This document shows, one piece after another, positions 2,981 to 23,300 of a stretch of DNA of 41,679 nt. Source of the DNA: a virus. Lineage: Duplodnaviria; Caudoviricetes. The first letter of the stretch is position 1; each line of letters opens with the position of its first letter. Below the pieces are notes generated by a model. It ran no database searches and was not told the DNA's origin. It saw only the letters and a program-made list of their open reading frames with translations. Position numbers and translations under genes: made by a program. The stretch spans positions 1 to 41,679 of IMG/VR virus record IMGVR_UViG_3300022895_000239. One strand, given 5' to 3'.

Positions 2981-2983
2981 CGT

Positions 2984-5549: not shown

Positions 5550-5820
5550 TAGATTAAAAAAGGATTAATAAAATTGTCTGTATAATTGATTATTTCGAAA
5601 TATTTCACCTTAATTTTCATTAAAATAGTCTTATATATCAAAAAATATTAAATATTGCATATGAGCTAACGCTCGCCCCACATTAAAATACTTTAAATTC
5701 ATAGTGTTACAAAATCATTACTAAAGTTTTATTATTGAATAATTATAAATTTAGAAAAATCAGCAAATTAACAAAATTCCCCCCATAAAAAATATACTTT
5801 TTCCTACTGAAATACTCAGC
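5550..5820 (+). promoter_or_regulatory. Very AT-rich upstream/promoter region of the Mor-like gene
   Basis: Abrupt AT-rich non-coding stretch in a GC-rich context, directly upstream of 5846. I could not assign exact promoter hexamers. Confidence 0.5.
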
Positions 5821-5845
5821 GATGGAATACCAGCGAGGGGGAAAG

Positions 5846-6300
5846 ATGAGTCTGACATGGCAGGAGCTTTTTGAAGGTTCAATGGTGGGATCGGACAGCT
5901 GCGTAGCATTCTGCAATCAGCATGCACCACTGGTGCTGGCCTGTCTTCCGTTTGCGCTATCTGAACTTGCCGGCCGGAGCAGTTTCAATGATATGTTCGA
6001 GCTGGTAAATAAAGTGGGGGGACGTAAAATTTATCTGCCGAAGTTCGGCAAAAATTTTGCTGAAACGTTTGGGATAGCCCTTGAGGAGAGTATCTACCAG
6101 CGCTGGCGCCAGATGGCAAATCAGCACGGTCAGATTGAAATTCCGTCTAAATGGGGGTATTCCTCACCCTTCGCCGCGTAGCGATATATACCGCAATACA
6201 AAATGGGCTCAGCAATGAAGAGCTGACTATAACTTTTGGCATCACTCAGCGTCAGCTGAGAAACATGCGCGTGAAGCTGAATGTCCCCTTCGAACGTTAG
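5846..6300 (+). pseudogene. Mor-like transcription activator with one frameshift in a G5 run
   Basis: LVNKVGGRKIYLPK is a Mor-like motif. Adding one G at 6153-6157 continues WGVFLTLRRVAIYTAIQNGLSNEELTITFGITQRQLRNMR (C-terminal HTH) to TAG at 6298-6300. Confidence 0.65.
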
Positions 6301-6499
6301 AACCAGCAAAAAACAGAGTGCGAGATCGTTATCCCGATTCTGAACCTCCGGAATGAACATATAGCGGATAATCTTCACACTTGTATTCATTCAACCTGCC
6401 GCCATGATAGCCAGCTCACATTACCAGGCTTCTTCGCCGTAAAAATTTCTTATTTTATGATTTTTTCGATAATTACATCCTACCCTCCTGGGAGCCTGT

Positions 6500-6766
6500 A
6501 TGAACAGAAGTCGGTTTAGTGAATTTGAAAAGCGTTTTGCCCTGACCCAGGTTGATAAAGGGGCCAGCATCCGCGATGTGTGTTACGTGTTTGGCATCTC
6601 GCAGGCCACTTTTTATAACTGGAAAAATCAGCTGACTGAAAGCTCGATGGTGGATATGGATCGGCTACAAAATCTGGAGAATGAAAACAGACGACTGAGA
6701 GAAAAGCTGACTGAACTTGAGAAGGATAAACAGATGTTAATTACTGAACTCAACCGGCGAAGATAA
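6500..6766 (+). CDS. Solo IS3-family OrfA-like HTH/leucine-zipper protein
   Basis: RSRFSE...SIRDVCYVFGISQATFYNWK...RLQNLENENRRL, with a GGAG RBS. No OrfB/DDE frame follows. Confidence 0.8.
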   Translation: MNRSRFSEFEKRFALTQVDKGASIRDVCYVFGISQATFYNWKNQLTESSMVDMDRLQNLENENRRLREKLTELEKDKQMLITELNRRR

Positions 6767-6912
6767 GGGTATTCCGGTTGTTCAGGAGTCAGGTGTTTTA
6801 TTTTCCTGTGGCTGACGGCGTGAGACACTCTGCTGCTCAGCCACAGTATAACGGTTTATTGTGACGCTTATGACTGCGTCAGAGAATAACCTGGCACAGA
6901 CCGAAAATTAAC

Positions 6913-6958
6913 GGTGACTGACACCACGTTCGCTTGCGAAAACGTGGTGTCAGTCGCC
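6913..6958. terminator. Long inverted repeat (18-bp stem), terminator-like or other structural element
   Basis: ggtgactgacaccacgtt-(cgcttgcgaa)-aacgtggtgtcagtcgcc has 15 perfect bp plus a G-U-compatible extension. There is no strong U tract. Confidence 0.5.
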
Positions 6959-7779
6959 TAAACCCTGTTCGTTGCTGATACGTTAAGCGCTGACACCCGT
7001 CTCTCTCTGAGGCCGCTGGTTTGACAGACGACAGCAGTTTTCCGCCCGGGCGGGTAGTTCCGTTACTGCACGACGCCCCGTTCACGGGAGGATTTCCCTG
7101 ACGGGCACCTGACGAGGGCCGGCGATTTCTTCCGGGGTTAATAATCGCGCCTACTGGACAGCGGTCGGGACACTCGTTGCGCGAACCTGCAGCGCTGTTC
7201 AGCGTATGCCTGTGCTGAGACTCAGGTTCACAACGCTTACCGCCTCAGCCAGGCTTACCTGGTGGCCGTGCGTATTGAATCTCTGCCCGCGATGAAATCT
7301 GCGCTGGGAGACAGGATCGCCCCGGATATGCAGGCGTTTCCGGCGCCCATGTATTTCAGGGCAGGCGCGTCACCCCGCGTGATACCCATTCCGGAAGCGG
7401 ACTGACGCCGGGTCTGCAGGCGTTTTTTTATGATAAACGGACGCTCTAATCCGGCGCACAGGCGTCTCGGGCGGGGTCCGTAGACCGCGAGGTGGCCTGT
7501 AACGGCAGCAGGATCCGCGTCGCGCTGCGTACAGCGCTCGTTACACTGTCACGCGTACCGGAAGGTGTCTGAGCAGGCTGCCTCTGATCTGGCGTTACCG
7601 GCCGTCGTCCGGTCTCTGACATTCAGCCTCCGTCCGGGGCCCCGTCCGTCTGCAAAATCCGGCCGTGCGTTCCCCGTCGTCGTCGCCCGTCGCGGCGGCC
7701 ATGATGGCTGTCATCTGTTCTGCGCTGAGGTCCCGGATGACCTCTTACCGTTTCATGGCGCCCGGCGCGCGGAGGAAGC

Positions 7780-8049
7780 CCGCGGGATTGTCAGGCCGAC
7801 AATATCACCTGCTGTTGAACTGCGCCGGCATTTGCCGATACCGGGTAATAAAATACAGTGCGGCTACCGTCGGCTGACCCGTTCCGGCCACCGAAGACGT
7901 GCATATTGCCGCCCTCTGTCGGTTATCGGGTTGTGCAGAAGATCCGCAAGGTGTCTGAGAGGGTGTATAAGCCGTCAGCCATTCTGGCCTGCGCGCATCA
8001 ACGCACGCTGACCGCCCAGCGTTTACCCCTCTTCATCCTGCCAGGCTAA
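7780..8049 (+). pseudogene. Possible second decayed LuxR-type HTH remnant
   Basis: Fragments in different frames, GLSGRQYHLLL and PKT-/-YCRPLSVI, are reminiscent of LS-x-R-E/Q and S-PKTVY. Confidence 0.2.
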
Positions 8050-8640
8050 TCGCTTCCGATAGTTTTGCCTGAACCGTTCTGCTGCTGGTACAGAATTGTC
8101 CCCGTCGGATAACCCGGTGCGCCCTGGGTTTCATGATTGCCACACGGGGCAGCTGCGTCGGCTGAACGGGGGGGGGGCGGTGAGTGCGCGACGTCAATCC
8201 TCAGCGCCTGTGCTCTGAAAACGGAACTGCCGGCTTACGCGACATGAGCGCCGTTCCGGTGACCTCCGTTAAGCACGTTTTGGCGCTGAACGCGGTGGAA
8301 ACCGTGGGGTCACGGGAATCCTGCACTTTATCGCGACAGGGGAAAAATAGGCACCTTAAACGGCGCAGTGCAGGTTAAGCCTCTGGCGGCAGACCGCACG
8401 TCATCAGGGTCGCACGCTGCCGGAAACGTGACCGTGAGGTGCAGACACGACCGCGCCGGCTGTTCAGCCGCGCTCACATAATGGCCTGGCAGCGCAAAGG
8501 ACTCGCAGATCGGGTGGGAGCAGAATCGCCCGGACGTTATACGACGAGCGTAACCTGATAATCACTCTACTGCGCAGTACGGCAGGGAGGACGCCGGACA
8601 ACGAGCGTCAGCATTACTGAGCGCACTGACCGCTGGCGGG

Positions 8641-8916
8641 TCAGGTTTTCAGGCAGCCCGTCAGCGCGGCTTCCAGCTGAGAGATGTAATACTGACGTGC
8701 CAGCCGATCGGCCAGCAAATTATTCACCACCTGATAATCCGAACCTGCTTTTAACTGTGCGTCAGTCATGAACGCGGGTCTTGCGGGCAAGGCAGTCAGG
8801 CACGTGACCGGGACCGGCACCTTTACGTCCACCGTTCGGGTTGCGGGGAGAGAAGAACAGCCCGTCAGCATCGCGATGCTAACGGGCAGCGCGCCATTCA
8901 CGAATCGCATCATCAC
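8641..8916 (-). CDS. Rz1: Outer-membrane lipoprotein o-spanin (Rz1-like)
   Basis: Lipobox MLTGC, Pro-rich VKVPVPVTC...LPARP, overlap with the 3' end of the i-spanin gene, and last position in the lysis cassette. Confidence 0.75.
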   Translation of the reverse strand: MMMRFVNGALPVSIAMLTGCSSLPATRTVDVKVPVPVTCLTALPARPAFMTDAQLKAGSDYQVVNNLLADRLARQYYISQLEAALTGCLKT

Positions 8917-9289
8917 AACTCCATTTTTTCATCGTTTCGGCGGCACGGTTCTTTTCATTCAGCCGCGCAATCTGCGCCTCGTACAGGCGCCCGTTTTGCT
9001 GAGCACGCAACAGGGCCCGCTCGGCTGCCTGATGTCTCGCCTCGCCTTCCTTTTTCAGGTTGTCCACCGCGGTATTCTGGTGCGCAATCGTCTGTCGCAA
9101 CTGCGTGACGTTTGCCTCCAGCTGCGCGATCGCCGCCTGACGAAGCGCCAGTGCACGGGCCTGTTCATTCACTTCCCGGCGGGCCGAATTGCGCTCGATC
9201 CACAGCGTGCTCACCACGCTCAGCACCAGAGCGGCTGCTATAACATATTTTCCCCCTGTCCCCAGAAGCATCCGCGCGAGCATCATCAT
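8879..9289 (-). CDS. Rz: Inner-membrane i-spanin (Rz-like)
   Basis: One N-terminal TM helix (YVIAAALVLSVVSTLWI), a long Ala/Gln coiled coil and a C-terminal Cys (SCDDAI). Confidence 0.75.
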   Translation of the reverse strand: MMMLARMLLGTGGKYVIAAALVLSVVSTLWIERNSARREVNEQARALALRQAAIAQLEANVTQLRQTIAHQNTAVDNLKKEGEARHQAAERALLRAQQNGRLYEAQIARLNEKNRAAETMKKWSCDDAIREWRAAR

Positions 9290-9675
9290 TTTAGCGACTG
9301 CCCGGCGCTACCCGCGGCCATTTCTTTTTTGCGTTGTGCTCTGACCTGCAGCAGGCTGCGAATGATAACGGCGATATCCCCGTGAGCCAGCAGCATCAGG
9401 GCCAGCACCAGAAAGTTAACCGCTACGTGAGTGGGTTCGACCGGGGTGTAATACCAGCCCATCCATACCCGGAGGGCTAACACGGCATAGGCGGCGGTCA
9501 GGACGAAGCGGATGGCGCGCTCATACCAGAACAACGCATTTTTTTGTTCCGCATTTTTATGCGGAGATAAAAGAAGCACTCCCGCAATGCCCGTGGCAAG
9601 CGTACCGTTAATCAGCAATAACAACAGATCAGGCAGGCTGTGCGCATCAAAATAAAGCTCAATTGCCATCATCAT
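9286..9675 (-). CDS. Three-TM membrane protein in lysis cassette (second holin or antiholin candidate)
   Basis: Three hydrophobic segments and a basic C-terminal tail. It overlaps both neighbouring genes. Confidence 0.6.
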   Translation of the reverse strand: MMMAIELYFDAHSLPDLLLLLINGTLATGIAGVLLLSPHKNAEQKNALFWYERAIRFVLTAAYAVLALRVWMGWYYTPVEPTHVAVNFLVLALMLLAHGDIAVIIRSLLQVRAQRKKEMAAGSAGQSLK

Positions 9676-10054
9676 CTTTTGTCTCCGTCCTTCTCTTCAG
9701 GGGATCCTGTGGTGCCTGCTTTCCGCCAATTAACCGCTGGACGGCCTGCGTCAGCAAATCCGGTACGGCATTCTCTGACCAGTCCAGAACGACGATAGCC
9801 AGGGTAACAATGACCGCTGACGACAAAAAGGCGGCGGGCCACTCGGGTAACCCACTTTTATCCTGGGTAAGCGGCGCCATCGCGACCCCACCGACAATGG
9901 AGATCAGAAAATAAAGCAGCTTACGTGGCCATGAAGGTTCATGGCTGCGCAGCAGGAAGACCAGTGCGCCACATAATACTCCGCTGACCAGCGTCAGATC
10001 GGAATGCGACCAGGTCTGGCTGGCGGTTTGCCAGATTGCTGAATTTGAGATCAC
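9659..10054 (-). CDS. Putative holin
   Basis: Three TM segments (GVLCGALVFLL; KLLYFLISIVGG; AAFLSSAVIVTLAIVV) and a charged C-tail. GTG start with a GAGAGG RBS. Confidence 0.7.
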   Translation of the reverse strand: MISNSAIWQTASQTWSHSDLTLVSGVLCGALVFLLRSHEPSWPRKLLYFLISIVGGVAMAPLTQDKSGLPEWPAAFLSSAVIVTLAIVVLDWSENAVPDLLTQAVQRLIGGKQAPQDPLKRRTETKDDDGN

Positions 10055-10243
10055 GTTGCCCTCTCACGATTAAACGTGGCACGCCCCGCTTTGGCATTCG
10101 ACAGGTAGCTAAGTGATTGAAAGTAAATTATCTATAAAAGTCTGCTCTGTCAGTTGTGCGCCTGCTGACGTTTGAGAATGTGAGGCAGTTCACGTTGCCG
10201 GCAAACTGCCCCACCGCCTGACGGTCAGCCAATGACGCCGTTT

Positions 10244-10414
10244 TCAGACTAATTTTTTAGCCAGCTTCACCGCGTCATCGAATATAACGTCAACGTCGTG
10301 GCCCGCGACTTTCAGCAGTTCTTTCAGTTTTGCTATGACAGCGTCGGTGTGGCTGGTATCCGTGGAAAGCGGTTCCGGGGAATACGCATTTACATCATCA
10401 ATGGGTTCAGACAT
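10244..10414 (-). CDS. Small 56-aa protein in lysis cassette (not in ORF track)
   Basis: AAGGAG RBS, then MSEPIDDVNAYSPEPLSTDTSHTDAVIAKLKELLKVAGHDVDVIFDDAVKLAKKLV*, predicting two amphipathic helices. Confidence 0.75.
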   Translation of the reverse strand: MSEPIDDVNAYSPEPLSTDTSHTDAVIAKLKELLKVAGHDVDVIFDDAVKLAKKLV

Positions 10415-10522
10415 TGTGTGACTCCTTACCTTCGGTTGATAACACGTTTTTCATCCAGAGGGGCATGCTGACCTGCGCGCCACCTCTTTACTTCTGTTCA
10501 TCCCGCCCTCCTGACGTCGGAT

Positions 10523-10948
10523 TCAGGAGATAAACATGTCCTGCTCTGCGGTCCGCCGCGCCGCCAGACCGGGCAGCGCTTTACCGTCAGCATGATCCCA
10601 CTGCGGGAATTCCGCCGCCGCACCGGCGCTGTCACCGGCGTTCAGTTTCCTGAGGAGCGTTGATTTAAGGAGATCGCCTGCGCCCAGGTTAAACACGAAC
10701 GACACCAGCGCATCGAACTGTCCCTGCGTCAGCGACACGCTGACATGTGCGCTGACGGTCATCTCCGCCGTCCTGACGTCGTCTCTTAAAAGCGCGTCGG
10801 CCTGCTCGGGGGTAATGACATCGCCCATCTTAACCCCCTGCGTATGCCCATACCCGATTGTGGGCAGACCGACGCTGTCTTTGTAGGCCGCAAGCTTCAG
10901 CCCTTCAAAGCGTTTAATCAGATTGATGCCATTAAGACTTGTTTGCAT
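10523..10948 (-). CDS. Endolysin, GH24 phage lysozyme
   Basis: IKRFEG..AYKDSVGLPTIGYGHT (E-D-T triad), FDALVSFVFNLG, GLAARRTAE. No N-terminal SAR or signal segment. Confidence 0.95.
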   Translation of the reverse strand: MQTSLNGINLIKRFEGLKLAAYKDSVGLPTIGYGHTQGVKMGDVITPEQADALLRDDVRTAEMTVSAHVSVSLTQGQFDALVSFVFNLGAGDLLKSTLLRKLNAGDSAGAAAEFPQWDHADGKALPGLAARRTAEQDMFIS

Positions 10949-11361
10949 CCGGACCTTCATTTTCAGTCAGCGTTTACCGGGATTATCAGGGCCGTCATCG
11001 CTGTCTTGCAGGCGACGCGGCGGACTGCAATCTGTTTTTCCGGTGAATAAACGTTGGGGTGATAACTGTCCCGGGGTGCCTGTCGCACCGGATAACCGAA
11101 GTTTAGGTAGCGTGGACTCGCCTGCCAGGTGGAAGGTATCCATCCAGGGCCTGACGGCGGAGTATGCGGTATCGGTCCCTTCATCACCGGCGGATGACGT
11201 CGGGTATCCCTGAAAACGCCGGGCCGGAAAGCGGCAAAGCGGGGGCGCAGGCGTTTGTTTCGCGGGTGAATTTTTGAATGTGTGATGGCGTATGGCGGCG
11301 GGGGCGTCCGGGGGTGAGAGCCCGCGGTCGGGGGGCGCGGTGGTGTTCTTAGCAACAGGTG

Positions 11362-11397
11362 AAGCCCTTTACGCCGCGGAGCTGGCGTTAAGGGCTT
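11362..11397 (-). terminator. Hairpin between afp16-like gene and lysis cassette
   Basis: aagccctt-t-acgcc-(gcggagct)-ggcgt-t-aagggctt inverted repeat. It lacks a clear U tract. Confidence 0.35.
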
Positions 11398-11546
11398 ACC
11401 ACGCGGGGTCTTTTACTGAGCGGGTGAGCGCCAGAAGGAAAACCCGCCCCCCGTTGTGACGTAGGGCCTGCCGTCACGCCCGGTGTGTTGACAGGCAAAC
11501 GCCAGCACCTTATTGCGTCACCCCCTTTCGCTTGCGCGGAGGGTGC

Positions 11547-12530
11547 TCATGCCGCACCGCCCCGGTTTTCTTCAGGCACGTTTTCCTGAGGCCCGCTGTT
11601 TACCCGTTCCGGTGCCTTGACCACCTTCAGTGGAGCGACAACGTTCTGGCCGCTCTCCTTAATCACCGCTGGCAATACTGAATTTATGATCTTGAGGCAG
11701 AGTTCATCTACCACCCCTTCTAAATCATATCCTGCCGTCTTCTTGCCTGGCGTCTTCTGATCTGGCACGATTTTCTGAAACTGCAGTTTAGTGAGCTGCG
11801 CACGTAACGCGTTGAGGTCATTATTCACGTCAAGTGCTGCACTGGCGATGACTTTCTCCAGCAGCAACCGCCTCAGGGCCGTCACACTGTCCTGCGGCAT
11901 GCCAGACACGTCGGACGAACCGGGAGTGATTTCCTCCAGTTCGGTTTTCCGCACCGCCGGGGCCTTCTCTTCCAGAGTGTCTGACCTGAGCCCCAGCTGG
12001 ACAGGAATGGTGACGTTGAAGTTCAGGCACAGGCGGGGTTTATCGCCCAGCGACTGCCAGAAATTACCGAGGCTTGAGAGATGCTCAGAGGGGGCCACCA
12101 CGCGCAGCACGGCGGGGAAATCGTCCCCGAATTGCATATTCAGGAGCCCATTGAGCGCACTATTCATGAGTACCACCGCCGGTGCGTTAAATTTGACATT
12201 TGCATCCTCTGAATTTTCCCACAGCGTCAGCAGATAACAGCAGCGCATATGCACCTGGCGGGGCGCATAAACGCCAGTGGTGGCATCAAACTGACGCGCC
12301 TTGCCCTGCCGCAGTTCCAGCGCTTCCTGAATATCGTACAAAAAAACGCAGTATGTTGACTTTTGCGGTTTGAACTCTTTATCCACCATATCGAAGCGAA
12401 TGTCTGACTCCTCTGGCACATAAAGTTTAAGCGCCGCGTCAATTTTTCCGTTTAACAAAATCAACGTATTATCGCTTTTCATAGTAACGTGGTCATCGGT
12501 ATTCGTTTTTTTATCTTGCTCACTCATCAT
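11547..12530 (-). CDS. Afp16/Pvc16-like tail terminator/cap (DUF4255)
   Basis: DIRFD...VFLYDIQEALELRQG, LSSLGNFWQSLGDKPRLCLNFNVTIP. It is the last structural gene, after the ATPase. Confidence 0.9.
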   Translation of the reverse strand: MMSEQDKKTNTDDHVTMKSDNTLILLNGKIDAALKLYVPEESDIRFDMVDKEFKPQKSTYCVFLYDIQEALELRQGKARQFDATTGVYAPRQVHMRCCYLLTLWENSEDANVKFNAPAVVLMNSALNGLLNMQFGDDFPAVLRVVAPSEHLSSLGNFWQSLGDKPRLCLNFNVTIPVQLGLRSDTLEEKAPAVRKTELEEITPGSSDVSGMPQDSVTALRRLLLEKVIASAALDVNNDLNALRAQLTKLQFQKIVPDQKTPGKKTAGYDLEGVVDELCLKIINSVLPAVIKESGQNVVAPLKVVKAPERVNSGPQENVPEENRGGAA

Positions 12531-12589
12531 TCCTGTCCTCATTTGCGGACGCCCGCAGCCTGAGCGTTACCCGTGGTGGTCCCCTGCCG

Positions 12590-14743
12590 TTAAGCCGGCA
12601 GGGGCGTCATAATCAGTTTTCCGGATTTGTCCATCTCGCGTCGCACCGCCCGCGCAATGTCAGACTGGCTCACCGGCCGGTTGCCCTCGGCCGCCAGCCA
12701 GCTGGCCAGCAGCGCGACGTTGCGGATGTTTGCCCCGGTCAGATCGGTCGCGGCCGCCCATTGCGCCCAGTCGACGTCTTCGTCAACATGAATCTGCGTG
12801 GGCCAGATATCGCGCCACATTCGCTCGCGCAGGGCCGCATCCGGCGCGTCGAAGCGGGTAATAAAGGTCAGGCGGCGGGAAAAGGCGTTATCCAGGTGCG
12901 CGCGATTGTTGCTGGTGAGCACCACCAGACCCGGATAGTTTTCCAGGCGCTGCAGCAGGTAGGAGACCTCGATGTTGGCGTGACGGTCTTTCGCGTCTTT
13001 GACCTCGCTGCGCTTGCCGAACAGGGCATCGGCCTCATCAAACAGCAGCACCCCGGTATCCGCCGTGGCCATGTCGAAAATCTGCGCCAGATTTTTTTCC
13101 GTCTCGCCAATGTATTTGTTCACCACCGTGGACAGGTCGACGCGGATCAAATCCACCCCCAGGGTGCTGGCCAGCACCTCCGCCGCCAGGGTTTTACCGG
13201 TGCCGGAGGGACCATGAAACAGCGCGCTGATGCCGGTGCCGTAGCCCACCTTGCTGGCAAACCCCTTATCGAGCACCGCCTGCTTGTGATGGATGGCAGC
13301 GAGGATTTCGCTTAACTGCCCTGAGAGTTTGTCGTCGACAATCAGGTCCGCGAAGCTGCGCTGAGGCCGGATGCGCTGCGCCAGCCCTTTAAATTGCTGC
13401 TGTCCGCGCACGTGCAGGGCCTGATGCAGGTCACGCCACTCCAGTGCTGCGGCCGGGGCACGGAGCATGCGGTACCCCTGCGCCTCCTGCCAGGTCTGGG
13501 CCAGCGCGTCAGCATCGAGATGGGTGCGCCTGAGCAACGCCTCCCAGTTCGTATCTGCACGCCACTCCGGGTTGTCTGCCTCGCCCGCCGGGTGTGAGGA
13601 CAACAGCCGCGCATCATCCTGTGCGGTCCGCAGCGGCAGCGTCATCATCAGGCGCGGCAGCTGCGGATAGATGTCTGCGGCTTCGTCCGCCGTGACCCGC
13701 GCAATCACCGGCTGGCCATGGTCTGCCAGGGTGGGCTCCAGCGCGTGAAGCAGCGCCGCATACCGCTCCACCCCTGCACTCCAGTTGCACAGCAGCAGCA
13801 CCCCTTTATAAAGACGCACCGCGCGCAGCGCCGCGTACAGGAGAGCCTGCGCCTCGGCCTCGTCGGCGGGTAAGCGGGCCAGATTGAGTTTCAGCAACGG
13901 GCGACCCGCGTCCTGTGCCACCTGGCTGATCAGCGTCTCACAGCCGTGGCCGCCCTGCAGCAACAGCAACGCCACGGGGGTGCGGATGGCCGTCTCAAGC
14001 TGGTCTGCGCAGGCGGCCCACGCGCCTTCCCGCAGGCGGGCCGCCGGGGCGGGATGCTGCCACTGTGCCGCCTCACCGGGTTCGATGCGCAGCGTGTCAG
14101 CGGGTTCACCGCACAGAAAGTGGAAGACCATTTCGTTCAGCCGCAGAAATTTCTCCCCGCCCCCCGCACGATTCCCGTTTATATCGGTGATCAGCACGAG
14201 CTGATGGCGCAGCAGCGCGCTGTTTTTTGAGAACAGCGTCAGACGGTTGGCGATACGTTCGCTGTGGCTGCGACTGAACAGCATCAGCAGCATTTCGCTG
14301 CCGGGCCAGATCATCCGGGATTCCCGCTGGACATACGAGATGATGCCGCCGTAGCGGGCATCGAGCATCGGCAGTGCCGTCAGCACCAGGACCTGGGTTT
14401 CAAACGGCGTCAGCGCAAAATTCGTCACGAGTTCGGCCAGTCGGCCGCGCAGCGGCGGCATCTGCCGTCCGTCAAGCCACGGGGTCGGCTTTGCCTGCTG
14501 CTGCCAGTGGGGCACGTCGGCGACGGGTGTCCAGGCGTCCCCCTCACCTTCATCCGGCAGCAGCATGTCTGCCATGTTAAGATAATCCTCGTCATGTTCG
14601 CGCTGCCATTTCAGCAGGCCCTGAAGCACCAGGTCGCTGTAATGCAGCCACGGGCCCAGCGAGGCCATGGCGTCGCGGTGCAGGTCTGTTGCCGGGGTAG
14701 ACGCACTCGCGTCCACGGGCTTATCACGCCATTCGTTTGTCAT
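12590..14743 (-). CDS. Afp15/Pvc15-like AAA+ ATPase
   Basis: Walker A GPSGTGKT, VVNKYIGETEKNL, Walker B LLFDEAD, DRHANIEVSYLLQRLE. An ATGA overlap with the upstream stop suggests a start at 14743. Confidence 0.95.
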   Translation of the reverse strand: MTNEWRDKPVDASASTPATDLHRDAMASLGPWLHYSDLVLQGLLKWQREHDEDYLNMADMLLPDEGEGDAWTPVADVPHWQQQAKPTPWLDGRQMPPLRGRLAELVTNFALTPFETQVLVLTALPMLDARYGGIISYVQRESRMIWPGSEMLLMLFSRSHSERIANRLTLFSKNSALLRHQLVLITDINGNRAGGGEKFLRLNEMVFHFLCGEPADTLRIEPGEAAQWQHPAPAARLREGAWAACADQLETAIRTPVALLLLQGGHGCETLISQVAQDAGRPLLKLNLARLPADEAEAQALLYAALRAVRLYKGVLLLCNWSAGVERYAALLHALEPTLADHGQPVIARVTADEAADIYPQLPRLMMTLPLRTAQDDARLLSSHPAGEADNPEWRADTNWEALLRRTHLDADALAQTWQEAQGYRMLRAPAAALEWRDLHQALHVRGQQQFKGLAQRIRPQRSFADLIVDDKLSGQLSEILAAIHHKQAVLDKGFASKVGYGTGISALFHGPSGTGKTLAAEVLASTLGVDLIRVDLSTVVNKYIGETEKNLAQIFDMATADTGVLLFDEADALFGKRSEVKDAKDRHANIEVSYLLQRLENYPGLVVLTSNNRAHLDNAFSRRLTFITRFDAPDAALRERMWRDIWPTQIHVDEDVDWAQWAAATDLTGANIRNVALLASWLAAEGNRPVSQSDIARAVRREMDKSGKLIMTPLPA

Positions 14744-16617
14744 ATTTTCCAGTCCACTGTCAGGGGAAGCGGTAGCCACGGCACCACCACCGGGGTTAAG
14801 GGCCATGGCAGGTCACCGAGCAGCACGTCGGCGGCCTGCGGTTCAACGGTGAGTTTTACGCCACCTTCAATGCGCAGCGTCCCGGGCCGCTGCAGGAACA
14901 GCTCGCGCAGCATCGGGACACTACAGCGGTTCAGCGAGGGCAGCGCGCGTAAAACGGGCGGCAGCCAGGCATCGATCTGGTCCTGTTGTGCGGTATCGGG
15001 CAGAGTTGCCACAAAGGGCGCGTCAGGTTCGATGCCGCAGAGAAGCCGCGCGCAGGGCGAGCGCCATTCGGCGAGGTCGCTGTCGCCCCAGGCGAGCCAG
15101 TCCAGTGCGGCCATGGCCTGCCAGCGCGCGGCCTCGTCAGTAAACTGCCCTTCCCGCAGCCAGCCGTGGCTTTCGAACCACGCCGGCAACAGCGGCCACA
15201 GCAAGACCAGCCCGGCACCGGCCACGCCCCAGGCGGTCTCCTCCTCCATCAGGGGGGACCGGGGGGCGGCGGGCGTTAATCGCGCAGGCGACACGGTACC
15301 CCGGACGCCCTCGCTGTTCACGACGTGCGGTACCAACGGGTCGATCGTCACCCGCCCGGCATGGTTCACGCGCCGGGCGTCATTCCCCCCCGGTCCGTCC
15401 GGCTGCGCAGCCGGGCCGGGGAGCCGGACTGCGTTCCCGTTTGCAGAGTGCGGCGTTGCCGGGTCGGGGGGTGACCGCGTGGCGCGCGCCTTCGCGCTGG
15501 CCAGCTGTACCACGGCGGCCAGCGGACGCGGCGGGGCGTCAGGCCCGTGCAGGACGTCAGCTTCATCCGCCGGCAGCGATTGAAGCCACACCTGGATCAC
15601 CGCTTTTAACGGTACGGGCAGCGGTGATGCCACCAGCGCCGCCAGCCAGGCGCGCAGTGCGCTGTCCTCTTCTGAGGGTGATGCGGCGCGCTGTTGCGTC
15701 GCCCGCGGGTGGGGCGGGCGGTGCAGTGCAAACTGCGGCGGGCGCCCCAGGCGCACCCGCGAGGGCACGTCGTCGAGCGCCCGCGACACGGCGGGGTCGG
15801 TCCAGGTCTGCGGCTGGTGCTGCAGTGCCAGCAGGGCTGCCAGCGGCGCAAAGTGCGCGACGTCTGCCTGCGGCGGCGAGGGCAAACGGGGCGCATCCGC
15901 CAGCCACAGGCTCAGCCTGGCCAGCGCTGACGGTGACCAGGTGGTGACCAGCCGCTGCCAGCAACGGGACTGCAGCAGCCGCAGCGCCAGTGCCACCCGT
16001 GGCGGGGTGGCGCTGGGCGGCTCGCCATACGGTAGTGCGTCTATCAGCCAGGCGTCACGGGCCTCCCGGCTCAGCCACGGCCGGGCATCGGCAATGCGCC
16101 CGCAGTCCAGATAGCGCAGCAGCTCGATAAAGCGCGCGGCGCGCGGTGCGGCTTCCTGATGCTCCGCAGCGCGCCAGGACGAGAAATCTTCCCGGACCAC
16201 GTCTGCGTCTGACGGCACCACGCCGCCCGCTGACGTCATCCGCAGGGCGTCCCGCGGTTCCCTGCCTGACATCGGCGGCGTGGCGTAATGTCCGTCGGAA
16301 GCGGCCACGCTACCACGCAGGAAGCCCTGTGCGTCGCGCTCCCAGCGACACTGATGCAACGCCGCCTGCAGGCGGGGGATCACCCGTTCATTCAGCGTCT
16401 GCTCAAAGCGCGAGAGCGGGATTTCGCCCACGTCAATCACCAGCTTATCGATGATAAAGTCCTGGTCTTCTGCCACCGCAAATCGGGTCAGTACCCGCGT
16501 CAGTTCGGCGTGCAGGCTGGCATAGAACCAGCGGCTGCTGCGTTGTTGCAGGTCCTGCGCGAGTCGCTCGCGACTGTGCAACCGCACGCGTAATCGTCCT
16601 GTCAGTGCTCTGTTCAC
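14740..16617 (-). CDS. Afp14/Pvc14-like tape-measure protein
   Basis: N-terminal IDKLVIDVGEIP and C-terminal AGLVLLWPLL...LRELFLQRPG...DVLLGDLPWPLTPVVVPWL motifs of eCIS tape measures. GTG start with an AGGAGG RBS. Confidence 0.9.
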   Translation of the reverse strand: MNRALTGRLRVRLHSRERLAQDLQQRSSRWFYASLHAELTRVLTRFAVAEDQDFIIDKLVIDVGEIPLSRFEQTLNERVIPRLQAALHQCRWERDAQGFLRGSVAASDGHYATPPMSGREPRDALRMTSAGGVVPSDADVVREDFSSWRAAEHQEAAPRAARFIELLRYLDCGRIADARPWLSREARDAWLIDALPYGEPPSATPPRVALALRLLQSRCWQRLVTTWSPSALARLSLWLADAPRLPSPPQADVAHFAPLAALLALQHQPQTWTDPAVSRALDDVPSRVRLGRPPQFALHRPPHPRATQQRAASPSEEDSALRAWLAALVASPLPVPLKAVIQVWLQSLPADEADVLHGPDAPPRPLAAVVQLASAKARATRSPPDPATPHSANGNAVRLPGPAAQPDGPGGNDARRVNHAGRVTIDPLVPHVVNSEGVRGTVSPARLTPAAPRSPLMEEETAWGVAGAGLVLLWPLLPAWFESHGWLREGQFTDEAARWQAMAALDWLAWGDSDLAEWRSPCARLLCGIEPDAPFVATLPDTAQQDQIDAWLPPVLRALPSLNRCSVPMLRELFLQRPGTLRIEGGVKLTVEPQAADVLLGDLPWPLTPVVVPWLPLPLTVDWKI

Positions 16618-16690
16618 ACGTTTCCTCCTGTTGGGGTAGCGCAGAACGCCCGTTTACGCTAAAATCCCGCTCAGATTTAGCTGGCCCTGA

Positions 16691-17692
16691 ATGATAGTGG
16701 CCATCCGTTTGTCGCCATTTTTACATGCCAGTGATACAACGTTCCGTCGCCTCTGCCAGCAGCGCCACCACTGGCCTGCGGGCGCGGATATCTGGCATCT
16801 GCGGTTTCACTGGCAGCGTGAACGCCTGCGGATACGGGACGCCCTGCATGCGGGTGAATATCTGCTTGTGCCATTATCGGTCGTGCATCGCGCAACCGGG
16901 GACAACGTGGTTATCTGGTCCGCTGCGGATGCGCTGGTCATGCACTGCCTGACCGCCTGGTCAGCGAGCCGCCTGTTGCTGCACCGGCCCTGTGAACATT
17001 TACGCGGACACGGCGGCGGGCACGTTTCCGTGCGACGCATTGACGCACTAATGTGCAACGGGCGTATCATTCTGTGTGTCGCTCCGCCAGTCGCGGACAT
17101 TACGCCAGCATCAGTAAAACCCGTCTGCGGGTCCCGCTGCGGCAACGGGTTCACTGTCCCATCGTACCGGACCTGCTGCGGCAGTTTCAGCACGACAGCG
17201 TTGAGGACGGTGGACGGTTTCACACGCCCAAAAAGGCATCGCCCGCAGCCGCGCGCTCAGCCCATTGCTGGCGGCGTTTCACCTGTATCGCCTTGATGAC
17301 ACGCTGAGCTACAACCCGCACGTGCATTACGTACGCTATATGGATGACATACTGATTTTCGCCGCTACGCGCTGGCATCTGCGTGACGCTGTGCGGCAGA
17401 TGAATCAGATTTTTGCCGAATACGGTTTTGTACAGCATCCGGACAAAACTTTTATTGGCCGCATTGATAAAGGTTTCGACTGGATGGGCTTACAATTTAC
17501 GGCTCTGGGTGTTATCAGCATCGCACCACGAGCGTTAGCAAACCATCAACGGAAACTGCCCCCGCTTTAGAGCAAGCCCGGCAAAATTGCTACCCCGATG
17601 GAGGGGTGCAGCGGGTGGTGCAGTACCAAAAGCGGTGGTTGAGGTATTCCTCCCTCGGGTCTGATTGGCCTCGCTCGCGCCCGCCCGGCTGA
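16691..17692 (+). pseudogene. Reverse transcriptase pseudogene, antisense within the eCIS operon and convergent on the tail-fibre gene
   Basis: Four frame segments join: ADIWHLRFHW...WSAADALV...HLRGHGG / VCRSASRGHYASI / KGIARSRALSPLL...YVRYMDDILIFA...HPDKTFIGRIDKGFDWMG / EQARQ...YQKRWLRY to TGA at 17690-17692. YMDD is at 17337-17348. Frameshifts are near 17060, 17235 and 17569. Confidence 0.9.
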
Positions 17693-17703
17693 CACATCTG
17701 GTC

Positions 17704-19671
17704 TCAACTTGTAACGACGAACACAATCGAGATATCCGTGTCGTCGCCCAAGTACATTGACTCCCGCCATCCGTCTGCCGGCCGCGCTATACTGCCATGC
17801 GCTTTCTCAGTTTCCAAAAAGACGGCGCCCTGGTAATACCCGTAATCGTACTCGCCGCTAGATCCTCGTCGTTCGAATAACTTACCCGCTACATACAGTT
17901 TCCCGTACACCCACCACACCTCCCTCATTTCGCCTTCTCGCCCTGCGAGGTGCATGTAAACGATAAGGTCTTTGCCATCGGAGCCGACCGTCACCGTGCC
18001 GTCCTTCTTATCGTCATTTGGATTGGGGACCCACTTGATTATTTTGCTGAGCGCGTCCTTGCTTCCGGCGAGGTTCCCATCTTTATTGCCCTCTATAATC
18101 CCGTCACCCTTTCCTTTAGCGTATGCATCCACCATTGCTTTTCCTACTTCTCTCTCTCCGGTTACATTCTCTTCAGGCTCGGACTGGTAATTTCCGTTGT
18201 CATGTTTTGCCTGTTCGACTGCTTTCTTAACGGCGGCATTAATCGCAACTGTATCTGTGCTACCTCTGTTAAATCCATCTTTATCTCCGGCGTCATAACT
18301 CATCTTCATGGCATCCGCCACCGCGCGCTCTCCTATCGTTCCACCTTCTCCCTGTAGTGGGGTCCATTTGCCATCCTTTACCTGAGTGGCGCCAATTGCT
18401 CCATTTACTGCATCTTCTACCGCCTTTCTGAGTGCGACTTTATCCTTCTTACCGCTGTCGTAGCCCGCCTTAAAGGCGCCGGGGTCGGCGACCGGATTCG
18501 CGAACAAGGATGGGCTATCCGTACCCAGTTTGGCATACGCCACCACAACAGGAGCTCTGTGACTGCATAAAACCAGGCTCGCGTATTCTGTTACATATTC
18601 GCCTTTCTGGTCGGGCTTGCCCTCTTTTGACAGCAGCCCGACAATGAAATAGAGTCCTGGATTATAAGCCTTGACATCCTCTGGGTGATTATCAGCGAGC
18701 CTTTCAAATCTTCCATTGCTATCTAGATTAAAGACCCATAAGCAGTCATGCGAAAAGGGCTGCGGTTCGTCACCCTCCTTTTCCCCTTTTGTATAAAACG
18801 TGCCATCCGTTTTGTTAAACGCGCTCATTACTGCAGTGCCGTTAACTATTTTATCCTTCCAGTCGCTTCGAAGGTTACTATTCAGAAAATCAATGACTGC
18901 ATTACACTCCTTCTCATGCGACCTGCCATCCGCGTATGCGGCATTTAGCGCATTTGCAATGTCTTTCTCCGTTTGGCTTTTCTTACTTTTGCTATCTAAG
19001 GCTATAAAGCCATTCGATGTATCTTTCTTCGCATCATCCAATGCCTGCTTCGACACTGCTGCCATCGCGGACTTCATGGAATCAATGCCTTCCTGAGTCA
19101 GATGCAATCCGTCCTTGTCCTGCTTAAGGTAATTAACTTTCCCGGCTACTTGCTCAGGGAGCTTCACTTGAAGCTGGTTTTTATTATCAATAGTCAGTCC
19201 CGAGGTGTCAGTATTTCCCTCAGTATACAGGTGCACACGAAGGCCACCGTCTGTACTGTCTTGTACCAGCCCCCCCTCAGACGCCAGTGAGACAGACAAT
19301 CCAGACGTATCGGTTTTAATGCCGGGCCCACATTTAACACCTAGCCCCTTAGAGGTTTTCTCGAGTCCACTCCCATCTGCTAACTTAACGCTCAGCTGGT
19401 TATATCCATTCACTTCGATGGCAAGGGAGGGATCCAGGTTCAGTTTCGCGGCACCACTTTCGTCGAAACCAATGCCGGCACCGTTGTTCAGCTCAATAAC
19501 CGTCTGTGTTGTCGCCGGATTGTTATCTTTACCCGCAACGTTGATTTCTTTCACCTTCAGGCCGTTCCCGAGTTGCGGATCCGCCAGTTCGATCAGCTTT
19601 TGGTAATTTGTTTCGTTTGGTACGTTGCCCTGTAGAAACGCTTTTTTCAGTTCGTCCGCTAATTTGCTCAT
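17704..19671 (-). CDS. Long tail-fibre protein (Afp13/Pvc13-like) with C-terminal putative receptor-binding domain
   Basis: N-terminal LKKAFLQGNVPNETNYQKLIELAD anchor, adenovirus-shaft-like G-L-x-V repeats, then helical repeats and a beta-rich aromatic C-terminus. It occupies the afp13 position. Confidence 0.85.
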   Translation of the reverse strand: MSKLADELKKAFLQGNVPNETNYQKLIELADPQLGNGLKVKEINVAGKDNNPATTQTVIELNNGAGIGFDESGAAKLNLDPSLAIEVNGYNQLSVKLADGSGLEKTSKGLGVKCGPGIKTDTSGLSVSLASEGGLVQDSTDGGLRVHLYTEGNTDTSGLTIDNKNQLQVKLPEQVAGKVNYLKQDKDGLHLTQEGIDSMKSAMAAVSKQALDDAKKDTSNGFIALDSKSKKSQTEKDIANALNAAYADGRSHEKECNAVIDFLNSNLRSDWKDKIVNGTAVMSAFNKTDGTFYTKGEKEGDEPQPFSHDCLWVFNLDSNGRFERLADNHPEDVKAYNPGLYFIVGLLSKEGKPDQKGEYVTEYASLVLCSHRAPVVVAYAKLGTDSPSLFANPVADPGAFKAGYDSGKKDKVALRKAVEDAVNGAIGATQVKDGKWTPLQGEGGTIGERAVADAMKMSYDAGDKDGFNRGSTDTVAINAAVKKAVEQAKHDNGNYQSEPEENVTGEREVGKAMVDAYAKGKGDGIIEGNKDGNLAGSKDALSKIIKWVPNPNDDKKDGTVTVGSDGKDLIVYMHLAGREGEMREVWWVYGKLYVAGKLFERRGSSGEYDYGYYQGAVFLETEKAHGSIARPADGWRESMYLGDDTDISIVFVVTS

Positions 19672-19739
19672 TGCTAACAGCCTCTGTGTATTGATGTTCG
19701 TTCACGGAACCAGGCACCCAGGGGGCCGGCAGCGATAAT

Positions 19740-20360
19740 CTACTTATTTAACAGACCCATCAGGTAATCCATGTTCAGATCGAGACCGCTCTCGTCCACC
19801 TTCAGCCCGCCGTCTGGTTTGCAAACAATGCGCACCCCCTGGCTGTCCGTTTTCAGCGCCTGCTGGTCAGCGTTAAGATGCAGGTCATTGTCCCGCAGCA
19901 ACAGCCCCCCCATGCTGGAAACGGCGAGCGCCACCTGATTCGTGTCCTGGGTGGGCCTAACCAGTCCGCCTTTCTCCTTTATCTGCACTGCAAGCCCATT
20001 TGCTGTAATCTTCAGGATGTCCGAATTCATCACCTTCAGACCTAGCTTTTTTTCCCCATCCAGCGAGGGGGGGCTTAGGGTGGTGCCATCAACATTTAAC
20101 ACCAGAGGCCCGCCTTCACAGGACAGGCCCCCCCCGACGGCACAATGGATGGACAACGGCGCTACCGGTTGGTTATCCGAATCATCGCCGCCCCCCTCCA
20201 GACCCGCTTCCTTGCTGGCGCGCAGGGGGGTGTCCGCACGATTGATAAGCCTTGCAAACTCCCCCTCACCTGGGACACACCAGGCTTTGAAACTTTTTGT
20301 GAGGTCTGCATCTGCGCCTGTTTTCGCGTATGCCGCTTTTTTAATAGCATCATCGGCCAT
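19740..20360 (-). CDS. Short tail-fibre protein (Afp13-like anchor plus shaft repeats, no head)
   Basis: LTKSFKAWCVPGEGEFARLINRAD anchor and GGL-x-V shaft repeats to the end. AGGAG RBS before the ATG at 20360. Confidence 0.8.
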   Translation of the reverse strand: MADDAIKKAAYAKTGADADLTKSFKAWCVPGEGEFARLINRADTPLRASKEAGLEGGGDDSDNQPVAPLSIHCAVGGGLSCEGGPLVLNVDGTTLSPPSLDGEKKLGLKVMNSDILKITANGLAVQIKEKGGLVRPTQDTNQVALAVSSMGGLLLRDNDLHLNADQQALKTDSQGVRIVCKPDGGLKVDESGLDLNMDYLMGLLNK

Positions 20361-20365
20361 GGTAA

Positions 20366-23300
20366 TCACTCCTGAGCCTTTGCCACACCAGGTGTTGGTG
20401 GTTTTGTGGGTGGTGGTGTTGGTTCAACGTAAATGACTGCAAGTGACTGCAGGATCTGACGTTTCTGTTGCAGGTCTTCAGTACCGTGGACGGCCTCTAT
20501 TGCGTTTGTCTTTTCATTATCGGAGGCCACGTGCGAAGAACCAATTCCGCTGCGCTCGTCAACAGGACGTTCACCGATACCCAACTTTTTCAGCAGCAGA
20601 TAAGACTGGTCTCCCACCGGCCGTCCTTTGTTCTGCCAGTTCAGGTATTGCCCGGCAAAATCGTCGAACTCTTTAATCCAGTGCATCTGCAGGTTGAGAT
20701 GGCTGGGCATCTCCTCACGAACGATGCTTTCAATCCACTGACTCAGTTCAGCCGGATTGTTACCGTGTTCGAGCAGCGTGCGGTCCAGCACCACACTTAA
20801 GGTAAACGCGAAATTTTCACTGTCATAGGGCAACGACCATGCGTAGCTGTCTGAGCTGGAGAGGTCCAGCTTATCCCAGTCAAAATGCTGATCCCCGGTA
20901 GCAGAATTCAGGTCTACTGGCTTAACACCTTTCCGCTGCTCCGGGGTTGCAGCAACGTTGCCTTTTCCGTCCAGAAATACCGGTTGGGCATTCCTCTTCC
21001 ACTCCACCTCCACCGTACCCAGAATCGGATCGACCTTCGTCACTTCAACAATAATGTCCGGTTTATCCCGGTTACTGGCGTCAGGCTGGAGATCGTGAGT
21101 ACTTGGCTGAAAAAGCCAGCGCCCCTGCGGCCGTAGCGCAAATTGGGTATTCACTTTCAACCCGGCAGGAAAGGCGCTCTTCACCGTCAGTACGGCCTTA
21201 TTTGAATCACCGTCGGTCTTTTTCGAATCACCATCGGCCTTTTTCGGATCATCCTTGACCTTTTCCAGTTTGAAGTCCTTATAGACCACCGGTTTCAGCC
21301 AGGTCTGCGACACACGCCATTTCCATGTGTTTTTAGTGTCTTCAAACAAATTTTTGCTGTCCCGGAGACGCCGGTTGTCATCCAGGTCGATGTAAAGCGC
21401 ATTATCTGAGTCAGTCTTATAAAACACGACCCCCATAAACGGGTCAGCGCTCTCAGCTCCCGCGTTTTCAATATCAATCAGCTGACCCACTGCTGGCGCT
21501 TTACCCTTGAGATTTAATTTCAGTACTGTCTTTCCTGCTTTCTGAGTCTCGTGGTCTTCATTAACCAGTCCAGCCCTGGACACGTCAAACCAGCCCTTAT
21601 CGTCTTTTGCCCCACCTGTTCCATCCTGGACAGTGCCCGGCATTTTTGGCAATAGCTCCTGGTGTTCCACCAGATAGAAAGGCAGCGTCTCAGCCGGGAA
21701 AGTATTCGGATATTGCTGTTCATCATTGCCTGACTGCGGCGATTCACCATTAACCGGACGCTGCCATTTCTCATCAAAAAGCGTTCTTCCCACCCCAATA
21801 CGGGCGGCGATTTTACGCTGTAGTGCGGAAATTTTGCTGATGCTGATAGCGGCGCGGTCATAGGCCAGACGCGTCACCTGGCGTAAAAACCCCTGCTGGA
21901 TGACGATAAAATCTTTCTGGTCTTTCAGCAGAATGTCACCGGCTGCTCGCGTTTCATTGAAATAGCCCAGCAGATAATCGAGGATAGCCAGCTCTTTTTC
22001 CGGGTCCTGCATCTGATCGAGGCTAACATTCACAAGCGCGCCAATGGTGTCATGGTATTTCTGCGGTAACAGGGCGTTACTCTGCTCAGCCGTCAGCGGA
22101 TCCTCCGCTACATACGGCCAGTAGGACGCGCCCCACACAAATCCTTCCGGCTGACGCCCGTCGAATCCCAGTAGCGAAGGCAGCATGCCAAGCTGGTAGG
22201 CGCTGTTCGCCAGCTGTTGTTCAAAGGTACGCAAAAATAACAGCAGATTCTGCGCATTTTTGTCTCCACCTTTCCCGAAAGCCTCTGCCCCCTGCTGTAA
22301 CCCGTACACCGGGGGCAGGGTCGTGCCCACGCTGCGATAAAAGCCCGGATTTCGATAGCGTCCATACGGCACGCTGCGCGTATCGTCGGGCGTGGCCAGA
22401 CAGGTCTCGGCCTGGTGGCGCCCATAGGCATCCTGAATGGCTGTTACATCCGTTGTAGTCAGCTGGATGTTCTGACCGCGCTTGTAGATGCTGACCGATG
22501 TAGTAAATTGAGGGTCGAGTTTTTTTTCAACGTCAGGCGCAGTGACGTCCTTCGTATCAGGTTTGGGGGCCGGTGATAGCCAGAACTGCAACTGCATATT
22601 GTCATTCACCGTATGGTTATCCTTTTCCCACTGGACCCTGATAACCCCGGACACGTTGCCCAGCACCGCCGCCGACAAACTCTGACTCGTGACAACATAC
22701 GCGTTTAACTTGTCTGCATTCGTCTCGCGCTCAGGTGGCAGCCGCACCGCCCAGCCATATTTCAGATTTGGACCGCTATACACCTGCTCCGCCACCTCGC
22801 CTGCGGCAAGGCGCACGGCGGCGTTTCTGCGTTCTGTCGGCGGCATCAGGGTTTGATTGATTTCCCACAGGGCGTCGGCTATCACCTGAATGATGCGCCC
22901 GGCTGGCAGGTCATCGTTCAGCGTCAGGCTGACTTTGGGTTCCGCCCTTTCCACGTCAATAAACTGCACATCCTGAATTTCCCATTCGCACAGGTTACGG
23001 TGCGCCTGCAGCCACGGCTTTAATTCAAGATTTGCTTTATCTTGTGTGACGCCGGGATTTAACGTCAGCCACAAGCGGTAGCCCCCTGACACCGAGTAGT
23101 CTTTTAAGCCTTTCTTCGCTTCTTCAGAAACTTTCTTTTCGTATTGAGTAGCGTTCTTTCCCTCACTGGATCTGAACTCAAAAGCATAGTTTTTCTCGTT
23201 ATAGGCGTACTGGTAGCTTTCTTCTGGCGCCAGCTGTGCAATCTGCACATCGCGGAAACAAAAACGGTGCGATTTGTCAGCATCCATGATCACTGTCAGG

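Follow-up and report, generated by a model that had tools for sequence, protein, structure and literature searches.

A decayed UG4-class reverse transcriptase at the tail-fibre gene of a contractile injection system, and a possible role in cis for its intact relatives

The window analysed here is the whole 41,679-nt viral record IMGVR_UViG_3300022895_000239 (Caudoviricetes). Within its operon for an extracellular contractile injection system (eCIS) lies an element that is almost certainly a decayed reverse transcriptase (RT) of the UG4 class, docked tail-to-tail on the gene for the tail fibre. Docking on a neighbouring gene is a trait of the UG4 family, not chance, and it recurs in other eCIS clusters; in related loci sequence identity ends where the RT ends. 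The reading we favour, to which we give slightly less than an even chance, is that the copy in the window is dead and that its intact relatives would act in cis, renewing or swapping the tip encoded by the gene next door.

What kind of RT is it? On the + strand, between the tape-measure and tail-fibre genes of the eCIS, the PADLOC model RT_UG4 matches three pieces in three frames (E 3.3e-33, 8.1e-11 and 2e-50), spanning profile positions 6-277 of 307. The best piece scores 169.6 bits with this model and 57.4 bits with the runner-up, UG17 (E 2.8e-16); the retron models score far under UG4, and Pfam RVT_1 matches the piece that bears the YMDD motif. With P0001, the closest intact relative found, tblastn gave identities of 57%, 51%, 72% and 42% over four frame segments. 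In a quick tree, the source of all family placements given here, the window RT clusters with P0001 within the UG4 set (SH-aLRT, an approximate likelihood-ratio support, 96). Among the prokaryotic RT classes it belongs with UG4 and not with diversity-generating retroelements (DGRs), group II introns or retrons. Among viral contigs no relative of the window RT exceeded 30% identity.

Is the copy still functional? Its reading frame is broken by three frameshifts, across which the original prediction, made from the letters of the window, had reconstructed the stop of the gene. All three are confirmed by tblastn with P0001, and contigs of four public runs (two DNA and two RNA libraries) match the interval 16400-19800 with 0 substitutions and 0 indels. 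Since the match is exact, the frameshifts are genuine, and assembly error was rejected as their source; contigs lose rare variants, so minor alleles may exist in the same interval. A second kind of damage lies in the motif CRTDIRGYY, which reads CRSASRGHY in the window. The residues T126, D127 and I128, invariant in 26 of 26 aligned UG4 RTs, have become S-A-S; the conserved aspartate is gone and YMDD is retained. From the three frameshifts and this replacement we conclude that the window RT is a UG4 pseudogene, and the copy is predicted to be inactive. The features of the junction are these.

16691-17692, + strand: UG4-class RT pseudogene, read through three frameshifts (PADLOC RT_UG4 on three pieces; tblastn with P0001)
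17053-17059, + strand: first frameshift, frame 2 to frame 1 (tblastn with P0001)
17083-17091, + strand: codons for S-A-S where UG4 has T-D-I (window translation against the alignment of 26 RTs)
17229-17232, + strand: second frameshift, frame 1 to frame 3 (tblastn with P0001)
17558-17570, + strand: third frameshift, frame 3 to frame 2, within the family's conserved 12-nt motif that encodes LYEQ
17693-17703: gap of 11 nt between the convergent RT and fibre stops
17704-19671, - strand: eCIS tail-fibre gene, 655 aa, at the Afp13/Pvc13 position, the convergent partner of the RT (Pfam Av_adeno_fibre, 25.2 bits)
16618-16690, + strand: spacer of 73 nt from the tape-measure start to the RT start, too short for an accessory gene or a template repeat
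14740-16617, - strand: eCIS tape-measure gene, divergent from the RT (Pfam CIS_TMP, E 7.5e-62)

The read-through RT ends with TGA at 17690-17692, and the stop of the fibre gene lies at 17704-17706. This compact arrangement is as the original prediction described it. A YMDD-bearing RT stands on the opposite strand within the 25-kb operon, where the other + strand open reading frames (ORFs) of at least 150 aa lie inside - strand genes; it sits between fibre and tape measure, its stop 11 nt from that of the fibre. The non-RT sequence between the flanking genes amounts to 84 nt in total, leaving no space for a group II intron RNA, a retron msr/msd, avd or a template repeat. In the 73-nt spacer there was no promoter-like site above chance and no Rfam match.

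Do other UG4 RTs sit against their neighbours in the same way? UG4 loci were collected from species genomes, viral contigs and metagenomes, as a sample (12/64 and 5/64 parts covered). One locus, L192, is the window itself and was dropped; 80 remained with at least 700 nt downstream, and in 80 of 80 RT_UG4 is the best-scoring model for the RT ORF. Their downstream neighbours, called by a simple longest-ORF rule, fall out as follows.

44 loci: convergent ORF, its stop -127 to +339 nt away from where the conserved RT core ends
6 loci: convergent ORF, 405-835 nt away
19 loci: co-directional ORF downstream
5 loci: RT fused to a long C-terminal extension
6 loci: no callable neighbour

The neighbour is therefore convergent in 50 of the 74 loci where it could be called (68%), as against 34% for flanking ORF pairs from the same loci (binomial p=5.5e-9). 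The distance from core end to partner stop has a median of 88 nt in the 44 close convergent loci and is 66 nt in the window. Surface or secreted-type Pfam domains were found in 26 of the 44 convergent partners that were scanned and no Pfam hit in 16. The domains are as follows.

PEP-CTERM: 12 partners (7 above the Pfam cut-off)
Collagen repeat: 5 partners
eCIS_core: 3 partners
Invasin, Big, fn3, pilin, DUF1120 and CarboxypepD_reg: one partner each

That homologues would converge on the 3' ends of fibre or adhesin-type genes had been predicted, and this is what their neighbourhoods show, the partners being mostly surface or secreted proteins. Single loci give the same picture. A Salmonella plasmid carries one full RT and two RT 3' fragments, each tail-to-tail with an inverse-autotransporter gene, and a Photobacterium RT overlaps the final gene of a chaperone-usher operon. 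In the tree the co-directional and fused forms make up one derived clade (11 rows), and the convergent forms are spread across the remainder. We conclude that docking on a neighbour gene belongs to the UG4 family as such.

Several further observations attach to these loci. On the Salmonella plasmid (L004, L295, L296) the RT 3' fragments keep the last ~135-155 profile positions, their 5' part having been removed by IS110 and IS66 insertions, and two of the adhesin loci have a gene for a tyrosine DNA invertase upstream. The derived clade (L007-L009, L168, L012, L013, L169, L173 and L379, with the partner co-directional or fused) has RT forms of ~700 residues, or an ORF of 260-390 aa just downstream; two of its downstream ORFs weakly match the C-terminal domain of the MrpH fimbrial adhesin. 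A copy on a Serratia entomophila plasmid is co-directional and ends a fimbrial operon; the hit had been considered as an Afp locus, and the fimbrial operon led to its rejection as such. UG4 is rare: in order- and class-level genome samples it was found at E<1e-60 in ~5 of 401 genomes and at E<=1e-50 in 3 of 401.

How far does sequence identity extend between related loci? In 16 of 16 related pairs it is 83-100% through the RT and falls to ~35-45% within 100-200 nt past the core end. Plasmid searches place the break at the same point, after the RT, and the tails of the RT ORFs beyond the conserved core are not conserved. Beyond this boundary, in three genomes, the divergence of the partner is graded. 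Budvicia aquatica has at least seven UG4 copies, several of them broken, which are ~90% identical from 2.6 kb upstream through the RT and again over the 5' part of the partner and beyond. Between these stretches the divergence of the partner rises from 2-8% at its 5' end through 20%, 38% and 45-57% to 60-75% next to the RT, where the saturation includes third codon positions. Two paralogous adhesin genes of the Salmonella plasmid do not diverge at all (0.0%) along 1440 codons, and diverge by 15-65% along their final ~450. In strain DSM 5075 of B. aquatica (L285-L290) each copy belongs to a repeat that comprises a Wzz-like gene, a regulator of the ANR family, the RT, a protein with an invasin domain and a SinI-family partner.

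The third genome is a metagenome-assembled genome in which two loci, L033 and L034, lie on two chromosomes. They share a 1.7-kb unit that is 100% identical outside the 190-aa partner gene, and the variable tract, roughly 450 nt, lies inside that gene. From the 5' end the partner diverges by 7%, 20%, 21%, 54%, 15% and then 0%; the final 107 nt, at 0%, hold the codons of the PEP-CTERM anchor and overlap the RT tail. In L033 a perfect 7-bp GC-rich hairpin lies at about +110 to +127 after the RT core end, just before the codons of the PEP motif, and coincides with the sharp 3' boundary of the variable tract. GC enrichment of the RT-adjacent tract is a mild and inconsistent trend.

What lies at the end of the RT itself? 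Immediately before the conserved core ends, the LYEQ codons form a 12-nt DNA motif that is kept across phyla, and a hairpin follows. In a length-homogeneous subgroup of 25 sequences, distinct from the window's own subgroup, an 8-bp helix is 79% paired, as against 33-50% when the partner columns are slid. Its covariation is 0.354 against at most 0.175 in the slid controls, and 0 of 500 shuffles reach that value. One helix pair is G.U in 21 of the 25 sequences, which fits an RNA of the RT-sense strand. For the window's own subgroup RNAalifold found no consensus structure, in a mixed alignment of 20 sequences that includes the window. The corresponding feature of the window is a prediction.

17572-17621, + strand (RT-sense): predicted RNA hairpin after the LYEQ codons (best local hairpin, -24.4 kcal/mol, fold prediction)

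Is the window an isolated case among the injection systems? Six other UG4 loci lie in an eCIS context (L087, L201, L228, L036, L377 and L378). In L087 an intact RT of 344 aa converges on a 628-aa protein that matches the PHROG family 'tail collar fiber protein' (E 1.3e-19). The fibre gene follows the Tail_P2_I, Baseplate_J, gp25, spike and hub genes, and an AAA+WHD ATPase gene lies beyond the RT, on its far side; this is the architecture of the window with a live RT. In L201, L228 and L036 the RT converges on proteins with an eCIS_core domain. L378 and L377, the latter with a broken RT, lie inside eCIS clusters and represent two of the three UG4-positive genomes (E<=1e-50) among the 401 sampled, in one class. 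The window RT and P0001 share a proteobacterial clade, apart from the cyanobacterial eCIS RTs, whose separate clade is starred in the tree; because the clades are separate, UG4 and eCIS probably became linked on two or more occasions. Between L087 and L201 the RTs are 82% identical, and the partners are without similarity. A search for close relatives of the L087 RT returned none besides itself. A gene of the Uma2 family, a putative restriction endonuclease, lies near the RT in L087 (8417-9007), L201 (9146-9769), L377 (1576-2136) and L378 (11467-12036), a proximity that may merely reflect the abundance of the family in those genomes.

How much of this is already in print? UG4 RTs were described as small, and as the sole possible case of retromobility besides group II introns; two copies in one genome had ~100 bp upstream in common and differed in their 3' flanks (Simon & Zimmerly 2008, PMC2602772). 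In the later survey by Mestre et al. (2022, PMC9226505) UG4 was placed under class 2 of the UG/Abi family, found mainly on plasmids among the mobile-element databases surveyed, and linked, for a subgroup, to fimbrial protein clusters; it was not enriched in defence islands, and a role outside defence was predicted. The loci studied here share with these published UG4 RTs the best hidden Markov model (RT_UG4), a length of ~310 residues with no extra domain, neighbours belonging to surface structures, frequent multiplicity, and residence in mobile DNA outside defence islands. They differ in that the neighbours in print are fimbrial, in a subgroup, and mobility is given there as a possibility; the window copy, for its part, is broken. 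In the parts of the two papers available, tail-to-tail docking, eCIS neighbours, a 3' hairpin and a collapse of identity at the RT end do not appear. In the wider literature on UG4 RTs and on contractile injection systems with RTs or DGRs, supplements aside, we found no RT inside an eCIS and no tail-to-tail arrangement, which agrees with the expectation that an RT in such a system had gone undescribed. The RT class and the fimbrial link are already published (PMC9226505); added here are the recurrence in eCIS clusters, the tally of how neighbours are oriented, a sharp boundary in each of 16 related pairs, and divergence that is polar in three genomes.

Could the window hold one of the known RT systems? 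A DGR was rejected: the window has neither template repeat nor accessory gene, and the paralogs L033 and L034 show no adenine bias. The 3' 808 nt of the fibre gene have no repeat anywhere in the 41.7-kb window, and no Avd-like or similar gene stands beside the RT, within flanks of only 73 nt and 11 nt. A group II intron was rejected in view of the 84 nt of non-RT sequence and the want of an Rfam match, the scan of 15500-20500 having returned no family at E<=1. A retron was likewise rejected, there being no Rfam match to msr/msd, no space or ORF for an effector, and scores for the retron models far below that for UG4.

There is a likeness to DGRs. DGRs act on the C-termini of phage tail-fibre and surface proteins. 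At UG4 loci, too, the RT adjoins the 3' end of a gene for a receptor-binding or surface protein, and the variable tract has a sharp 3' boundary and fades 5'-ward. The tips of the Budvicia partners retain a W..EWG..NG..C pattern, which we take to be possibly C-type-lectin-like. The differences are that the UG4 RT is convergent, the DGR RT lying downstream in the same orientation; that the window lacks the template repeat and the accessory gene; that the UG4 RT belongs to another clade; that the paralogs L033 and L034 show no adenine-specific pattern; and that the tracts of the Budvicia and Salmonella paralogs contain indels and reach saturation. A second comparison is with antigenic variation by gene conversion of the cassette type, such as pilin variation in Neisseria. 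It shares with the UG4 loci conserved flanks, a hypervariable middle and several paralogs per genome. It differs in that no silent cassette array was seen at UG4 loci, where an RT gene whose 3' end is structured always forms one of the conserved flanks.

What, then, might an intact UG4 RT do? A process anchored at the 3' end of the RT, which rewrites the 3' region of the neighbour over variable lengths, is to our mind the most likely role, although we propose it tentatively. The RT would bind its own 3' hairpin and make cDNA over the 3' region of the partner, either from read-through RNA of the RT gene or from the overlapping mRNA of the partner; the cDNA would then take the place of the existing sequence, over tracts that are anchored at the RT end and vary in length. 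The proposal rests on the docking, the conserved 3' hairpin, the identity that ends with the RT and the divergence that fades along the partner. It is more doubtful that UG4 amounts to a second kind of DGR, one that would need no template repeat, would be anchored by a hairpin where its own gene ends, would copy the 3' RNA of the abutting gene and would write back tracts of variable length, renewing the tips of pili, adhesins and PEP-CTERM proteins and, in an ancestor of the window as in L087 today, the targeting fibres and cargo-linked proteins of eCIS.

Several points weigh against an action in cis. The evidence is comparative throughout, and RT-dependent change is inferred from it. The substitutions between L033 and L034 have an ordinary spectrum (AG 15, CT 17, GT 10, AC 4, CG 4, AT 3), with no adenine-specific differences in this pair of relatives of the window locus. 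Tips that differ by 35-65% and carry indels can be read equally well as allele replacement or as mutagenesis; in adhesins and fibres it is the tip that varies most, also where there is no RT; and the pattern could equally arise if gene conversion keeps the flanks alike. In the count of orientations 24 of the 74 loci are not convergent (19 co-directional and 5 fused), 2 of the 44 convergent partners scanned are of a housekeeping type (pyruvate kinase and rhomboid), the rule by which neighbours were called is crude, and the loci are phylogenetically non-independent. At several loci read-through from the RT could be terminated by a strong hairpin that stands between the end of the RT and the stop of the partner. 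On the RT-sense strand the conserved hairpin itself comes before the partner, which leaves the geometry of priming unclear. Lastly, the fibre in the window is near-invariant: seven cluster members differ by V650A, by a 1-aa deletion and by one truncated form.

This last point bears directly on the original prediction, which had proposed a search for hypervariability confined to the 3' end of the fibre gene. At the window this did not materialise, either in the 7 cluster members or in the contigs of the runs. The idea of a minimal diversifier made of RT and fibre has fared in two ways: the partners of related RTs are indeed hypervariable near the RT in paralogs, but the window copy is a pseudogene, the paralogs have no adenine bias, and nothing shows that the RT copies fibre RNA. 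The observation behind the original prediction is confirmed, and its interpretation is partly supported.

Does the RT need to act on its neighbour at all? RT and 3' hairpin might together form a selfish, or at least a portable, module that settles at gene 3' ends and has no effect on the neighbour; group IIC introns, which land after terminators, are a loose parallel. Ordinary diversifying selection together with recombination would then account for the variable tips, and the RTs would be so alike through gene conversion or because they spread recently. The multiplicity of copies in B. aquatica, at least seven with several broken, is what such a module would leave behind, as are the 82%-identical RTs of L087 and L201 on unrelated partners, the RT 3' fragments that persist beside adhesin genes, the frequent decay (the window, L377) and the unconserved ORF tails past the core; the naming of UG4 as the only possible retromobility besides group II introns (PMC2602772) points the same way. 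However, in Budvicia and on the Salmonella plasmid it is the whole locus, on both sides of the variable tract, that is duplicated and not the RT alone. A polar gradient anchored at the RT end is not predicted, and random landing without added selection does not account for the strong bias towards surface or secreted partners. Neither target-site duplications nor empty sites came to light, a result that comes without a systematic search. We regard a module without effect on its neighbour as unlikely, though a serious contender.

Might the convergent RT instead regulate its partner, by antisense RNA, transcriptional collision or a cDNA on/off switch, and leave the partner's sequence unchanged? 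Convergent ORFs do overlap, genes for ANR, CaiF/GrlA and LuxR regulators and a DNA invertase occur in the enterobacterial loci, and contigs from RNA libraries span this region of the window, with the strand not distinguished. Antisense control needs no polymerase, yet the catalytic motifs of the RT are invariant in 26 relatives, and the collapse of identity at the RT end is left unexplained. Regulation is in our view improbable.

A defence function fares slightly worse still. An anti-phage gene of the Abi or DRT kind might stand beside genes for phage receptors or tail-like particles, and the next-best PADLOC models are UG17, UG18 and UG26. UG4 belongs to the UG/Abi family, in which many groups defend against phage, but Mestre et al. 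found no enrichment of UG4 in defence islands and predicted a role outside defence (PMC9226505); the convergent form, moreover, has no attached effector domain or gene. Least probable of all is a chance remnant of an unrelated RT insertion, or a canonical DGR with its template repeat elsewhere in the genome: the window copy is a pseudogene and the repeat search covers 41.7 kb of the genome only, but chance is largely refuted by recurrence, since the spacing fits the family (66 nt against the median of 88 nt) and a second, independent eCIS, L087, has the same arrangement of fibre and RT, and a distant DGR is opposed by the wide margin for UG4 (169.6 against 57.4 bits) and by a window without accessory gene or repeat.

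What has become of the locus in its own population? The truncated form of the fibre results from an 8.0-kb deletion (10226-18233) whose ends, 10225 and 18234, meet in a 4-nt microhomology. Lost with it are the last 176 codons of the fibre gene, the RT, the tape measure, the ATPase and the Pvc16 gene; a fibre product of 511 aa is left. The deletion form is found on 12 contigs and the full-length form on 4, and in run X6 their depths are 30 and 5. Since the deletion form outnumbers the other, the injection system is in the course of being lost from much of the population. With the activity of the RT predicted to be lost, the fibre tip would now be frozen.

The eCIS operon that surrounds the RT lies on the - strand at 11547-36104 (Pfam hits) and holds the Afp/PVC-type gene set in one operon: sheath, tube, spike, baseplate, tape measure, AAA ATPase and Pvc16 are all present. 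Its order runs from three sheath genes and two tube genes through a VgrG-like spike and large baseplate proteins to a short fibre-like gene, the 655-aa fibre gene, the CIS_TMP tape measure and the AAA+WHD ATPase; a Pvc16-like gene comes last, followed by lysozyme and two holins. These components, with two fibre-like genes and the lysis cassette among them, stand in the same order as in known Afp/PVC systems, from which the window differs by the RT gene inserted between fibre and tape measure. In such systems the Afp13/Pvc13 fibres determine the target range. The fibre of the window has an adenovirus-fibre repeat, and its gene is placed after the baseplate genes. Two further features belong to this region.

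19740-20369, - strand: short fibre-like gene
10523-10960, 9659-10054 and 9286-9675: lysis cassette, consisting of the lysozyme and the two holins, in that order

Over 14500-16500, in the region of the tape-measure gene, G+C is 68-73%, and in the adjoining fibre genes 48-55%. Downstream of the operon, at 1216-11500, long ORFs are scarce besides the lysis cassette and a helix-turn-helix gene, and the eCIS cargo genes may be decayed or absent. No relatives of the tape measure were found in viral contigs, and the sole matches to the fibre were members of its own 90% cluster. A structure of the last 178 residues of the fibre, predicted without an alignment, gave a mean pLDDT (predicted local distance difference test) of 37.7, an unusable model; a scan of 16300-19900 for promoters and terminators returned nothing that exceeds shuffled expectation.

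UG4 is among the few bacterial RT classes without an assigned function, and an action in cis offers a concrete, testable hypothesis for it. The fibres choose the cells that injection particles hit, and a natural device that alters fibre or cargo-adaptor genes would bear on the evolution of eCIS. The window copy, a decayed example, is useful as a natural 'RT-off' comparator.

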